Shown here: positions 12,878-19,361 of the stretch, piece by piece | Numbering within the stretch: the stretch's first letter is position 1 | Layout: every line of letters starts with the position of its first letter | Source: an uncultured delta proteobacterium | GTDB lineage: Bacteria > Desulfobacterota > Binatia > Binatales > Binataceae | Reading direction: 5' to 3' | Length of the DNA stretch: 64,000 bases | Assembly: GCA_963808235.1 (NCBI GenBank) | Contig: CAWEEQ010000004.1 | Coordinates: 352,001 to 416,000, forward strand | Notes under the pieces: generated by a model | What the model was told of the DNA's origin: nothing | The model's database searches: none | The model's input: only the letters and a program-made list of their open reading frames with translations | Position numbers and translations under genes: made by a program

Positions 12878-14366
12878 AGTCGCGATGATCGGCTTCGATG
12901 CCGCCGAGTTCAGCTACATCCAGCAGTTCCTGCCGATGCTGCCGAACTTCAAACGCGCAATCAGTTGTGGACGGACGCGCAGACTCTCCTCTACCGCCGG
13001 CATGTTCCCCGGTTCCGTATGGCCGACATTTTACACCGCAAGTCTTCCCGGTGAGCACGGCATCCACCACTTGATGCAGTGGGATGCCGATGCGATGCGG
13101 CTGCGCAGAGTTTCAGACGCATGGCTCTACTGCGAACCGTTCTGGCGCGAACTCGAACGGCGCGGACTTCGCGTGATCGCTCTCAACGTCCCGATGACCT
13201 TCCCGCCGAGTGAGTGCGCCGGCGTCGAAGTCAGCAGTTGGGGCGCGCACGACCAGCTGAGTCTTTTTACCGCTTACCCCCGCGAACTTGGCCCCGAGAT
13301 CATGCGTCGATTCGGCGCGCATCCGATGGGAATCGAAGTCCCGGTCGAAAAGTCGCTAGGCGAACGAATGCGCGTCCGTGCCAATCTCGTCAACGGGGTG
13401 CGAATCAAGAGCGAGCTCACGCGCTGGTTGCTCACCTCTCGCCCATGGGATTTCTTCATCGCCGCCTTCGGCGAGTCTCATCGCGGGGGACACATACTCT
13501 GGCCCGACGGTCCCGATGGCGAGTCGAGCATTCCCGCAAGCGCCCTGCTCGACGTGTACCGCGCCCTCGACAACGCTCTCGGCGAAGTACTTGCCGCGCT
13601 CAACCTTGAGGAAACTACGGTGATCATCTTTGCATTGCACGGAATGGGCGCCAATCTTTCGCAGGAACATTTCGTGACTCCGTTGATGGACCGGGTGAAT
13701 GCGAAGTTCAGCCAACTGGAACCGGGCCTCTATCCGTCGGGCCGCTCGCCGCGCCAACTGAGCGTGATGCGTCTCCTGCGCGAGAACGTTCCGCCGTGGG
13801 TTCAAAGCAGAATCGCCAACCTGGTTCCCCAGCACGTCAGAGACGCCGTCGTCGACCGCTCATTCACCTCCGGCCGCGACTGGTCGCATACTCCCGGGCT
13901 GGCTCTCAGAGCGGACAACAACGGCTACCTCAGGTTTAATCTTGCCGGCCGCGAGCGGCTGGGGATGCTTGAGCCCGGCAGCGCGATCTTTGCGCGATAC
14001 TCCGATTTGGTGCGCGAGTCTTTCACCAGCCTGCGCACTCCCGACGGCAGACCGATGGTCAGGGACGTGTGCGTTTCGTCCGAGCATTTTCCAGGCCGGC
14101 GGGCGCCTCGCCTGCCCGACCTGATCGTGACCTGGACCGGTCTCGAGCCGGCATCGCGGGTCGATTCCGTGCTCGGCCCCATCGTCGCTGAACTCGACAC
14201 CGGGCGCGGCGGAAACCATCGTTCCGATGGATTTCAGATCGTGCTGAAGCCTGGAGTCGAACAGGCGGGCGAGGACCGGCCGCTCGCGATCGGGGAATTG
14301 GCGCCGATGATTCTCCGCAGCTTCAGCGAATCTCGATCAGGAGCCGGCAGCGTCGTTAGCGACTGA
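12855..14366 (+). CDS. Alkaline phosphatase superfamily / nucleotide pyrophosphatase-like protein
   Basis: IGFDAA, GSVWPTFYT, HRGGHILWP, LHGMG, GNHRSDG; paralog of 1592-3070. Confidence 0.8.
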   Translation: MSANNQPKVAMIGFDAAEFSYIQQFLPMLPNFKRAISCGRTRRLSSTAGMFPGSVWPTFYTASLPGEHGIHHLMQWDADAMRLRRVSDAWLYCEPFWRELERRGLRVIALNVPMTFPPSECAGVEVSSWGAHDQLSLFTAYPRELGPEIMRRFGAHPMGIEVPVEKSLGERMRVRANLVNGVRIKSELTRWLLTSRPWDFFIAAFGESHRGGHILWPDGPDGESSIPASALLDVYRALDNALGEVLAALNLEETTVIIFALHGMGANLSQEHFVTPLMDRVNAKFSQLEPGLYPSGRSPRQLSVMRLLRENVPPWVQSRIANLVPQHVRDAVVDRSFTSGRDWSHTPGLALRADNNGYLRFNLAGRERLGMLEPGSAIFARYSDLVRESFTSLRTPDGRPMVRDVCVSSEHFPGRRAPRLPDLIVTWTGLEPASRVDSVLGPIVAELDTGRGGNHRSDGFQIVLKPGVEQAGEDRPLAIGELAPMILRSFSESRSGAGSVVSD

Positions 14367-14984
14367 CCGCTCTGGCGGAGGCGGAAAACATGGCAGCGTG
14401 CGAGTTACCGCATAATGATAATCGCGCCCGCTCCAGTTGAAGGTTCCCGTGGTCTTTCCGAAATTGGTGGTCAGGTTGGCGAGTTTGTCGGCTTCCGCTT
14501 CAGAAATGGATTGCGCGGGCGCATACGCCAGGAAGTTGCTGTCCGACTCGGGGATCGCGCCGGCCAGCGGCGGCGAAAAATTCATCTGCAGAAAATTGAC
14601 CGCTGGATGCCATCCACTGGCGGCATTGTTGTCGGTGGTTACCGGCGCCCACTGCGCATCATCGCTCGAATCGACCAGCGCCAGTTCGCGATACTCCGGC
14701 GCGCCTGAGGTGTCCTTGCGAAGCTCGATCACCCCAGGTGCATCGGCCGCGAGTTGATCGCAGCTGTCTCCGCTCTCCATTAAACTTTCTCTCTCACGAG
14801 CCTCGGCGCGCGCGAGGTCCTCGTCTTTGTGGGTCTCCATCGCCACGGCTTCCGCCGCCCCAACCGTGACCTGGGCGACACCCGAGCCGACATCCTCCGC
14901 GGCGCTGATCGCATACGGCGCCAACTGCGCCGCCAGCATCCAGCATCCGGTAGTGAAAGTCGCAACCGCACCCGCAAACAGCAC
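14337..14984 (-). CDS. Hypothetical protein, possible lipoprotein
   Basis: 215-aa ORF; hydrophobic N-terminus with TTGC lipobox-like motif; start uncertain. Confidence 0.55.
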   Translation of the reverse strand: MLFAGAVATFTTGCWMLAAQLAPYAISAAEDVGSGVAQVTVGAAEAVAMETHKDEDLARAEARERESLMESGDSCDQLAADAPGVIELRKDTSGAPEYRELALVDSSDDAQWAPVTTDNNAASGWHPAVNFLQMNFSPPLAGAIPESDSNFLAYAPAQSISEAEADKLANLTTNFGKTTGTFNWSGRDYHYAVTRTLPCFPPPPERSVANDAAGS

Positions 14985-15175
14985 GAGCAGCGCCGACGCG
15001 AAATTTAACCTGCGGTAATGGATATAGCCCCCACAACGATCCTCGCAACTTCCGATATTGTTCGGCTGCGCGGTAACGCGTTCCCTCGGCCATCAATAGC
15101 CTACCAGAAAGTCCGAAAGATAACTGCAAGGAGACGAGCCCGCTTTGGCCTTGTCTGACATGGCAGCGTCGGGAC

Positions 15176-15239
15176 AAAAAATGGCCGGGCTACGAGTGGG
15201 GACCGCGGGTGGGGGACCAACGGTTCATGTAGCCCGGCC
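15176..15239 (-). terminator. Intrinsic terminator
   Basis: Perfect 11-bp inverted repeat 15183-15193/15229-15239, then T6 on the minus strand. Confidence 0.7.
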
Positions 15240-15291
15240 TGGCTTGGGGACAGGCGCTGTTGGTCTCGGGGGAGGAGATTGTCAGCGCTGA
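15176..15291 (-). ncRNA. Candidate sigma54-dependent small RNA with C-rich loops
   Basis: Starts at the predicted +1 of a sigma54 promoter; 5' hairpin with CUCCCCC loop; ends in an 11-bp stem GGCCGGGCUAC/GUAGCCCGGCC followed by AUUUUUU. Confidence 0.65.
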
Positions 15292-15301
15292 GACTAAGAT
15301 G

Positions 15302-15318
15302 AGCAAACAATGTGCCGA
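15302..15318 (-). promoter_or_regulatory. sigma54 (-24/-12) promoter
   Basis: TCGGCAC-ATTGT-TTGCT with exact GG-N10-GC spacing. Confidence 0.7.
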
Positions 15319-15762
15319 CAAAAATGGCCACCAAAGCAAGCATTTGTCGATCCGGTATTTTTCTCGTTTTGCAATCAGAGCAGTCCGCACGCCTCCGAAC
15401 TGTGCTTCTTTCCACGAGAACATGATGATTTTGCAAGTTGCGAGACAAGTCGCACTCGCGCCTCATTCGTGAGACGCATGCCCCCGGATGCATCCAACCG
15501 ACTGCGGCCAACGGCAGCTCTCGTGATGCGTCGTCATATAATGTCCGCGAGGCACATCTCACTGACTCGCGATCGCACCGCGTCTTCAACCCGACCACCC
15601 GCGCGAAACGAATCGCAAATCATTCGTCGTCGCGAAATTCGACTCGACCGATTCAGTTCATCTGATGCGGTTCGTCGCGAATCGTCTGACGACGCGAGAC
15701 TTTCACGCCGATTTTTCGCTTCGGTTGAGAGCCCAGCGTCCCTGTGTTAATTCCTATGGGCT

Positions 15763-15836
15763 CGGGGCGTAGCGCAGCTTGGTAGCGCACCTGCCTTGGG
15801 AGCAGGGGGTCGGCCGTTCAAATCGGCTCGCCCCGA
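15763..15836 (+). tRNA. tRNA-Pro(TGG), CCA not encoded
   Basis: Acceptor CGGGGCG/CGCCCCG, anticodon arm CCTGC-CTTGGGA-GCAGG, T-loop GTTCAAATC. Confidence 0.96.
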
Positions 15837-15838
15837 TC

Positions 15839-15915
<77 letters not shown>

Positions 15916-15976
15916 CGGTACCGACGGCTTTAAGATTGAAGACTGGCCGATCCCGAATTGGAATAGAGCGATGGGT

Positions 15977-16053
15977 GGTGAGTGTAGCTCAGTTGGCAGA
16001 GCATCGGATTGTGGCTCCGGCGGTCGAGGGTTCAAATCCCTTCACTCACCCCA
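15977..16053 (+). tRNA. tRNA-His(GTG)
   Basis: G-1 plus GTGAGTG/CACTCAC, C73 discriminator, anticodon loop TTGTGGC, CCA. Confidence 0.96.
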
Positions 16054-16089
16054 AAACATCCTGCTACGTAAGGTTGGCATTGACACGGT

Positions 16090-16165
<76 letters not shown>

Positions 16166-17936: not shown

Positions 17937-19325
17937 CTACGGCGCTGGCTTGATGTTCTGGTTCACGCGGAAGAAGTTATCCGGATCGTACTTCCGCTTG
18001 ATCTGAGTCAGCCGCTCGTACTTGTCTCCGTAGGCTGCCCTGACTCGAGCGTCTCCCTCATCTTCGAGATCGTTCACGTAGACCGCGCCGGTCGAGAGCG
18101 GGCGCATCGCGGCGTAGAAATCCTCGACCCACGCGGATGCTTTTTTGCGCTCGCCGGATTTTTTCCAATACGAATGCACCCAGTACTCGTATCCGACACG
18201 TCGAAAGCCGAAAGCGTCGTCGCGAGGCGTCGAGCACCACGGCCCGTGCCAATACATCATTGTGATCCCGCTCGCTTCCGTGGGCGCGCTGGAAGCGTAT
18301 TCGGCGATCGCCTCGATCGTCTCGTCAGTAAGGCGCTCAAAATGCCCACCCCTCCGATGACTCGAGCGGTCGCCCTTCGCAGGCTTATCTGAATCCCGCC
18401 GCTGCTCGTCCAGGTAATCTCTGGTTTTGACGGTGTCCTCGAACGGTTTAAGAAATCTGCGCAGCGGCCTGAGCACGCGCTCGCCCTCTCGTTCCTCGCC
18501 CGGCCAGAGTACCGCAAGGTCGATCATGCGGTCCCGCCGATGCGGCAGCACCGCTACGAGTATGAACAGGTCATTCGGGATCGATAGCGCGTAGTCGTCG
18601 ATAAAGCGCAAAACTTTTTTTGCCTGGCGAATCGGGTATCTCAGATGTCCGGAAAGAACCGTCTCCACAGGATGCAGCCGAAGCTCGAGCGAAGTTGCAA
18701 CGCCGAAGTTGGCGCCCGCACCGCGCATCGCCCAGAACAGGTCGTCGTTCTCGCCCTCGCGCGCAGTAAGGACCCGTCCATCCGCAGTAACCACTTCGAT
18801 CCGCCGGATGCTGTCGCATCCATATCCGAACTTCGGGGTAAGCGAACCTTCGCCGCCGCCCAGCGCATAACCCGAGACACCGACCGCCGCGCACATACCG
18901 AGCGGTGTCGCGAGCTTGAACGCCTGCGCGATGCAATCCAGCTCCCCGCTCACCACGCCGCCTTCGATCGTGACGAGCTGGCGGTGCGGGTCGATTGCCG
19001 CATGCTTCATCGCCGATAGATCGATCACCATCCCACCATCGCACACGCCGTGGCCGGCGAAGCTGTGACCGCCCGCCCGCACCGCGGTCAGCATCTGATT
19101 GTGGCGAGCAAATTCGATCGCACGCCGCACATCGTCGACGTTTGCACATCGCGCAATTATCGCGGGATGCTTATCGACCGCCCGATTACAGACACGTCGC
19201 GCGTTTCGGTAGCGCCTGTCGCCGGGCAGGATAATTTCACCGGCGATGGAATCGGCGAATTTGCGAATTGATTCCGGACTCAGGTCTGCGATGGATTCAT
19301 CGGCTGTCAATCGAGGTATCATCAA
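17937..19325 (-). CDS. FAD-binding oxidoreductase, VAO/berberine-bridge family
   Basis: VRAGGHS covalent-FAD His, LFWAMRGAGANFG, YVN, KRKYDPDNFF. Confidence 0.92.
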   Translation of the reverse strand: MMIPRLTADESIADLSPESIRKFADSIAGEIILPGDRRYRNARRVCNRAVDKHPAIIARCANVDDVRRAIEFARHNQMLTAVRAGGHSFAGHGVCDGGMVIDLSAMKHAAIDPHRQLVTIEGGVVSGELDCIAQAFKLATPLGMCAAVGVSGYALGGGEGSLTPKFGYGCDSIRRIEVVTADGRVLTAREGENDDLFWAMRGAGANFGVATSLELRLHPVETVLSGHLRYPIRQAKKVLRFIDDYALSIPNDLFILVAVLPHRRDRMIDLAVLWPGEEREGERVLRPLRRFLKPFEDTVKTRDYLDEQRRDSDKPAKGDRSSHRRGGHFERLTDETIEAIAEYASSAPTEASGITMMYWHGPWCSTPRDDAFGFRRVGYEYWVHSYWKKSGERKKASAWVEDFYAAMRPLSTGAVYVNDLEDEGDARVRAAYGDKYERLTQIKRKYDPDNFFRVNQNIKPAP

Positions 19326-19345: not shown

Positions 19346-19361
19346 AGCAAGCCGGGTGCCA
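19346..19361 (-). promoter_or_regulatory. sigma54 promoter for the FAD oxidoreductase
   Basis: Consensus TGGCAC-CCGGC-TTGCT; predicted +1 near 19335. Confidence 0.7.

Follow-up and report, generated by a model that had tools for sequence, protein, structure and literature searches.

The minus strand of a 64,000-nucleotide (nt) stretch of an uncultured bacterial genome (GenBank assembly GCA_963808235.1, contig CAWEEQ010000004.1, positions 352,001 to 416,000; hereafter, the window, to which all positions refer unless another contig is named) very probably carries, at 15291..15176, a real small RNA (sRNA) gene, not described before, of the family Candidatus Binataceae. The source genome, here G000, is a Candidatus Binatus metagenome-assembled genome (MAG) from the uncultured phylum Binatota, which has no cultured member according to the accessible part of the main genomic study of the group (PMC8262859). 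Comparison of related sequences shows a conserved, structured RNA gene with its own sigma-54-type promoter, two activator-type boxes, and an intrinsic terminator; the promoter and terminator make the gene independent of its neighbors, as is characteristic of a trans-acting sRNA. We consider it probable that the product is a free-standing sRNA of ~116 nt, driven by sigma-54 and an enhancer-binding protein, that blocks Shine–Dalgarno (SD) regions with its C-rich motifs. The original prediction had proposed an unannotated trans-acting sRNA of about this length under an enhancer-binding protein, and all comparative tests that we ran agree with it.

One line of evidence is the pattern of conservation. 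A BLAST search with positions 15480-15160 against 40 relatives gave matches in 23 of the 24 genomes of the genus and in none of the 16 genomes from ten other families of the class; the matches always cover the predicted transcript (15288-15176) and often reach the promoter, up to 15324. When 24 loci are aligned with MAFFT, the RNA, the promoter elements GGCA and TTGCT, and an upstream T[CT]GCA..GAGAA are all invariant, and the flanks diverge immediately 3' of the U tract. Conservation is thus restricted to the predicted transcript and its promoter. A covariance model (CM), R1, for which 48 distinct RNAs were taken from public genomes, matched 110 of the 151 genomes of the family, among them 77 of the 95 high-quality ones, and 20 of its 30 genera; a further model, R2, derived from a diverse set of 44 copies and run on 24 genomes negative with R1, added two genera (g21 and g22), in both of which the copy comes with promoter and boxes. 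A search at the level of the order is the same as that of the family, the order comprising this one family, and the CM did not find the RNA in the 16 genomes of the ten other families. In five genomes from five negative genera, no sigma-54-like promoter was found within 1.5 kb at the syntenic site by the tRNA cluster. The BLAST and R1 tallies for family and order include five unpublished genomes (G018, G023, G082, G084, and G111), all five with matches, and the 24-locus alignment includes two unpublished loci (L005 from G023 and L023 from G018); alignments A1, A3, and A4 and both models are free of unpublished genomes.

The RNA itself behaves as a structured molecule. The stretch of 126 nt folds at -48.2 kcal/mol, compared with -29.3 +/- 2.9 kcal/mol for 200 dinucleotide shuffles (z -6.49), none of which folds as well. 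In a CM alignment of 44 copies, which is biased towards its own model, 98.5% of the cells form pairs and 13 of the 25 pairs show double changes; no column shuffle in 500 reached any of the five covariation measures, and sliding the partners by 1-3 columns reduced pairing to 30-46%, with a maximum of 45.9%. Helices 1 and 2, which form stem-loop 1, pair in 99.5% and 96.3% of the cells and have five pairs with double changes, and helices 3-5 of stem-loop 2 pair in 100%, 97.1%, and 95.5% of the cells and have eight. An independent alignment and folding of 29 diverse copies with MAFFT and RNAalifold gave a similar fold with compensatory changes in 9 of 22 pairs; it recovered both terminator-hairpin helices and, of hairpin 1, the outer helix but not the inner UCUC/GAGA stem. 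The original prediction had described a first hairpin (UCUC-CUCCCCC-GAGA) with +1 near 15291 at its base, followed by a UCCCC linker, an 11-bp terminator stem enclosing two more UCCCC motifs, and AUUUUUU, and all of these are found there, the hairpin at 15290-15251 (Table 1); it had also named covariation among orthologous intergenic regions as a check and lack of conservation of promoter and stems in related genomes as grounds for rejection, and the stems do covary, and both promoter and stems proved conserved.

Four C-rich single-stranded motifs are conserved, CUCCUCCCCC in hairpin 1, UCCCCAAGC in the linker, and UCCCCC and UCCCC within stem-loop 2, and these unpaired motifs rank among the most conserved letters of the RNA. 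Across genera, loop 1 is always rich in C and U with a C run of four to six, and in other genera it reads CUCCCCC or alike.

The promoter, CGGCAC-N5-TTGCT, differs at one position from the TGGCAC-N5-TTGCW consensus and lies where the original prediction had put it, at 15317-15302 (-). Allowing one mismatch, the pattern occurs twice in the 64-kb window against an expectation of 1.25, which alone is not beyond chance; the weight of the promoter comes from its conservation and not from the frequency of the pattern. Even without anchoring the alignment on the promoter, GGCA and TTGCT do not vary, while the spacer positions are conserved at only 44-77%. Each of the 69 true loci that bear the pattern has GGCA[CT]-N5-TTGC, which ends 22-27 nt 5' of the loop motif, and GG[CT][AG][CT]-N5-TTGC stands at the same position in copies from about 20 genera. 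Among the 31 CM matches listed, 29 have the promoter, the two exceptions being a weak copy in a tandem array and a chance match. No sigma-70-like site was found on the sRNA strand. The T tract directly 5' of the -24 element (15318-15326, -) is 83-95% conserved among 49 distinct promoter windows.

Upstream of the promoter, a motif search in 30 diverse loci returned TCGCAAATTGCGAA, a 5-3-5 inverted repeat of the type TYGCA-N3-YGMRA, which is present twice. The proximal box starts at -56 to -60 from the GG of the -24 element in 27 of the 30 loci, and the distal one at -124 to -129 in 24; this puts the proximal box ~50 bp and the distal box ~120 bp upstream of the -24 element and their centers ~75 and ~145 bp upstream of +1, and where they are shifted, the spacing of ~70 bp from box to box is retained. 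The best hits score 18.5 bits on average, compared with 1.4 +/- 3.4 in shuffles, the proximal core T[CT]GCA..GAGAA does not vary among the 24 aligned sequences, and the boxes accompany the RNA also at loci lacking the tRNA cluster. On this point, the original prediction has to be corrected. What it described as an AT-rich tract (15356-15375) is in fact the proximal box TTGCAAAACGAGAA (15374-15361) together with an A run; the palindrome TGCGA-N6-TCGCA (15454-15439) does overlap the left half of the distal box TCGCAACTTGCAAA, but its own left arm is unconserved, and the second palindrome (15477-15458) is not conserved among relatives. Judged by the conserved sequences, the palindromes named as enhancers were mostly wrong, the predicted real boxes lying beside or under them. 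Across G000, the sRNA promoter is alone among 563 loose sigma-54-like matches in bearing two boxes of at least 18 bits, and other sigma-54-like sites carry only weaker boxes, of 13-15 bits. The sequence of the boxes points to activation by an NtrC-family protein with LuxO-like DNA specificity. An identity of the motif with the PEP-CTERM box was rejected, as the motif 1 of that box contains TTTACA.

Table 1. Features of the sRNA locus and its divergent neighbor (window coordinates)
Feature	Position	Strand	Remarks
Predicted 116-nt sRNA	15176..15291	-	Ends predicted: +1 by the -12 element, 3' end by the U tract
Stem-loop 1	15251..15290	-	Inner stem UCUC/GAGA, apical loop CUCCCCC
C/U-rich tract UCUCCUCCCCC of stem-loop 1	15278-15268	-	
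Single-stranded linker UGUCCCCAAGC	15242..15252	-	Almost invariant within the family
Stem-loop 2 / intrinsic terminator hairpin	15183..15239	-	11-bp basal stem and inner helix
11-bp basal stem GGCCGGGCUAC/GUAGCCCGGCC	15239-15229 and 15193-15183	-	
C-rich motifs inside stem-loop 2, GGUCCCCCACC and GGUCCCCACUC	15218-15208 and 15204-15194	-	
Terminator U tail AUUUUUU	15176..15182	-	T-rich tail also 3' of the stem in homologues
Putative sigma-54 promoter, -24 CGGCAC, -12 TTGCT	15302..15317	-	GG-N10-GC; T tract in front
Proximal activator box (upstream activating sequence, UAS) TTGCAAAACGAGAA	15361..15374	-	Position weight matrix (PWM) score 18.1 bits
Distal activator (UAS) box TCGCAACTTGCAAA	15430..15443	-	5-3-5 inverted repeat, PWM score 18.9 bits
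tRNA-Pro/Arg/His/Lys cluster	15762..16165	+	Divergent neighbor, outside the RNA
The minus-strand coordinates were checked by script.

Among known systems, the closest parallels to the gene are of two kinds. With the Vibrio Qrr sRNAs, it shares the layout of a short free-standing sRNA gene with a sigma-54 promoter and upstream 5-3-5 inverted repeats of the TTGCA-N3-TGCAA type. The accessible text of the Vibrio studies gives TTGCA-N3-TGCAA as the LuxO consensus (PMC3352281), lists ttgcaaaatgcaa, ttgcaaatcgcga, ttgcaatttgcaa, and ttgcattttgcaa as sites from chromatin immunoprecipitation sequencing (ChIP-seq; PMC10328515, Table 1), and describes LuxO of Vibrio cholerae as binding sRNA promoters almost exclusively, with five ChIP peaks (PMC10328515). 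Compared as sequences, our consensus TCGCAAATTGCGAA and distal box TCGCAACTTGCAAA have the same 5-3-5 layout as the LuxO box of the qrr genes. The two differ in several respects: the sRNA matches no Qrr CM, neither at the gathering score nor with E up to 10; Qrr is Hfq dependent, and no Hfq gene was found in six Binataceae genomes; no activator gene stands beside the RNA and G000 has no LuxO equivalog; and the seeds are C-rich anti-SD motifs in another phylum.

On the side of the seeds, the likeness is to the alpha-r14/NfeR1 "cuckoo" sRNAs of Alphaproteobacteria, in which unpaired C-rich anti-SD motifs likewise occur in several hairpins. According to the portion of the source at hand, their CCUCCUCCC loop motifs target SD regions independently of Hfq and with redundant seeds, and NfeR1 has three hairpins with an identical motif, its activator being LsrB and its repressor NtrC (PMC10746234); it is therefore not driven by sigma-54. 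Loop 1 of our RNA (CUCCUCCCCC) has CUCCUCCC in common with CCUCCUCCC, as that motif is given in the same portion; unlike those sRNAs, the RNA here has two domains, with CUCCUCCCCC in loop 1 only and UCCCC(C) in the other motifs, and matches no Rfam model. The RoxS/RsaE-type sRNAs of Firmicutes also pair with SD regions through several CCCC loop motifs and without Hfq. They differ in lineage, promoter type, and structure, and again, there is no Rfam match. NcS25 of Burkholderia uses a single-stranded seed to pair with an outer-membrane porin mRNA at its SD, and the text accessible does not call it sigma-54 dependent (PMC10117139); our best single-genome candidate target is also a porin, of the BBP2 family, but its pairing lacks statistical support and, in the extended form, does not reach beyond the genus. 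The Rfam scan advised at the outset found nothing but tRNAs at the gathering score and at E up to 10 gave chance matches only (flg-Rhizobiales on the opposite strand and eukaryotic lncRNA and miRNA models). On its promoter side, the gene would thus work like a Qrr-type circuit and on its seed side, like a C-rich anti-SD sRNA of the cuckoo or RoxS type; with no CM match, no Hfq, no LuxO equivalog, and another hairpin plan, it belongs to neither and appears to form a new sRNA family.

In the proposed mechanism, sigma-54 RNA polymerase would transcribe the sRNA from the -24/-12 promoter (15317-15302) once an NtrC-family enhancer-binding protein, sitting on the two inverted-repeat boxes, activates it, and the long GC-rich hairpin with its U tract would end transcription. 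By analogy with the alpha-r14/NfeR1 sRNAs, the C-rich motifs would then pair with the G-rich SD regions of several mRNAs and block the initiation of translation. Hfq (PF17209) was detected in none of G000, G006, G017, G132, G060, and G104, genomes 92.95-100% complete, while control genomes did match; with no detectable Hfq gene in the lineage, the pairing of sRNA and mRNA would proceed Hfq-free.

Several results weigh against this reading, in whole or in part. The dependence on sigma-54 and on an activator is one that we infer from sequence alone, and within the genus, covariation is limited to 3 of the 25 pairs, a weakness explained by the high conservation of the RNA sequence there. Five public sequencing runs were candidates, each with 0.22 of 9 words, and the four compared with the locus showed no transcript, only contigs of relatives, 90-99% alike, over 15173-15290 with the flanks uncovered. 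The sole contig from an RNA library (X1, 262 nt, from a relative) starts at 15280 and runs 155 nt beyond the terminator; past the terminator, its sequence is unlike the window, it shows neither a transcript nor ends, and it may be DNA.

The search for targets was no more favorable, and the check by target prediction advised at the outset, run on a single genome, gave no significant target. The prediction was a crude one, using RNAduplex-type energies for three RNA segments against 4669 rough-called start regions of one genome. The best target of loop 1, the start region of a BBP2 porin at -34.8 kcal/mol, was equaled by 3 of 35 shuffled seeds, so that the prediction is not better than chance, and the number of strong sites (26 at or below -25 kcal/mol) was reached by 5 of 35. 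The inner segment of stem-loop 2 produced GC-driven noise only, and the complement of the linker, GCTTGGGG, ranked 51st of 256 among NNNNGGGG words at start sites, with no enrichment. In the porin start region, UCUCGGAGGGAGGAGAU is kept in two further Binatus genomes, and two other genera have only GGGAGGAG or GGAGGAG, which confines the extended pairing to the genus; in the fifth genome examined, the porin orthologue was not found. For the Big_7 proteins with GCUUGGGGG, none of the five genomes searched has a full-length orthologue, the sole match being partial (residues 387-691, 42% identity) and in one genome of the five; as candidate targets, these two other than the porin are unconserved. 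By eye, with no formal test, 8 of the 14 top target candidates have a signal-peptide-like start. A separate observation on the porin gene (BBP2/OmpL-like; G000 C3:9455-9575 region and L139-L142) is the motif GGTA[TC]GAA[TA]CTTG ~100 nt upstream of it, which resembles a -24/-12 element but lacks the GC and is kept in 5/5 genomes examined.

The search for the activator likewise yielded no more than leads. G000 encodes one rpoN and 19 strong sigma-54 (AAA+) activator genes, at least 9 of them with a response-regulator-type architecture; none of the 19 scores above an NCBIfam equivalog cut-off, and for LuxO, the best score, 364 bits, falls short of the 800 required. No AAA+ activator gene was found near the RNA in 123 loci. 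In a tree of 132 pieces reaching from the AAA+ domain to the C terminus (one piece of <200 amino acids was dropped), drawn from four genomes with the RNA, G000 among them, and four that lack it, no orthogroup was present in 4/4 of the former and 0/4 of the latter. Three orthogroups, represented in G000 by C3:20332-21786, C4:3550098-3551486, and C4:3050446-3051348, occur in all four genomes with the RNA and in one of the four without; with eight related genomes, they are leads only. As a side observation, two further sigma-54-like promoters of G000, at C4:211312 (+) and C2:60421 (+), have palindromic TYGCR-N3-YGCRA boxes of 13-15 bits and precede paralogous proteins of 57-62 amino acids with a hydrophobic C-terminal segment; they may share the activator of the sRNA or a related one.

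In one alternative, a real sigma-54-driven RNA acts by sequestration, its four C-rich motifs titrating an RNA-binding protein or sponging G-rich RNAs without pairing with ribosome-binding sites. Four C-rich repeats within one short RNA, the absence of a significant or conserved mRNA partner, and the failure to find Hfq in the six Binataceae genomes would all suit such a role, but no bacterial protein is known to us to bind CCCC loops like this, and the search that failed to yield targets was crude and covered a single genome. The C-rich sRNAs characterized in the accessible portions of two studies moreover pair with SD regions (PMC10746234, PMC10117139), and we regard sequestration as unlikely.

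A cis-acting role, with the element serving as leader or attenuator for the co-oriented hypothetical open reading frame (ORF) 14984..14337 and no separate sRNA, is very improbable. Within the genus, a homologous ORF of 215 amino acids does follow on the same strand, ~190-240 nt downstream, but the first long ORF downstream is convergent in 14/24 loci, sometimes ending 7-28 nt past the RNA, which argues that the RNA is not a leader; the downstream gene is unconserved in other genera, and the sequence diverges immediately past the U tract. More generally, the RNA is divergent from the tRNA-Pro/Arg/His/Lys cluster in 36 of 43 loci, and its other neighbors are not conserved between genera. Least probable of all is a divergent housekeeping RNA (6S-like or signal recognition particle (SRP)-like) or a small protein gene with no regulator: 6S RNA was not found in G000 with Rfam RF00013 and an ORF of 77 amino acids (15423..15190) overlaps the element, but the SRP RNA was located at another site in the genome, an RNA of 116 nt that has two hairpins and matches no Rfam family at E up to 10 is unlike 6S, the lack of matches in several genera of the family ill suits an essential RNA, and the indels of 1 and 2 nt and a conservation that tracks helices and loops rather than codons speak against a protein.

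The sRNA is normally present once per genome, the exception being a tandem array in a genome of another genus (G068, L119: 4001-4115, 4220-4340, and 4440-4554). Two copies of the array are clear and each has a sigma-54 promoter, and the middle copy is weak and promoterless, yet with a CUCCCUCCUCC loop. A scan for the exact pattern in one genome per species gave 48 loci, of which 46 are true homologues, most of them titled as MAGs of Candidatus Binatus, Binataceae, Binatia, or "delta proteobacterium." Four contigs (L053, L056, L060, and L073) that carry the Binataceae sRNA and promoter are titled Acidiferrales, Thermodesulfobacteriota, "uncultured proteobacterium," or Proteobacteria MAGs, and the RNA of L053 is identical to that of a Binatus genome, which suggests differences in binning or labeling. 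The pattern loci from Thermoanaerobaculia and Streptomyces were rejected as homologues, both promoter and structure being missing; the only class-level CM match (L126) lies within a coding sequence and has no promoter; and L164, L121:1969-2082, L062, and L064 are chance matches. Elsewhere in the window, a perfect TGGCAC-N5-TTGCT stands at 19346-19361 (-), 21 nt upstream of ORF 19325..17937, which encodes an oxidase with FAD_binding_4 and BBE domains; activator boxes of the sRNA type were not seen at its promoter.

Overall, a free-standing, probably SD-blocking sRNA would be the first well-supported regulatory RNA of the Binatota lineage. We found no paper linking "Binatota" with "small RNA," and the accessible part of the main genomic study of the phylum makes no mention of sRNA, sigma, or non-coding (PMC8262859). 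Its promoter and two activator boxes are defined, and a CM finds the sRNA in most of the family; in a lineage outside Proteobacteria and with no Hfq found, it would combine sigma-54 control, LuxO-type boxes, and C-rich anti-SD seeds. A bolder proposal, which we hold as rather doubtful, is that a dedicated NtrC-family response regulator with LuxO-like DNA specificity has the sRNA as its only high-affinity output, a Qrr-like circuit in a phylum lacking Hfq, with four anti-SD motifs resetting many mRNAs. If this is true, a Qrr-like circuit arose or was kept in an uncultured phylum, where it possibly resets envelope mRNAs on a signal. The gene offers a handle on regulation in abundant bacteria of peat and forest soils: metatranscriptomes can be screened for the sRNA, an environmental signal would be reported by its induction, and with the boxes in hand the activator can be searched for.

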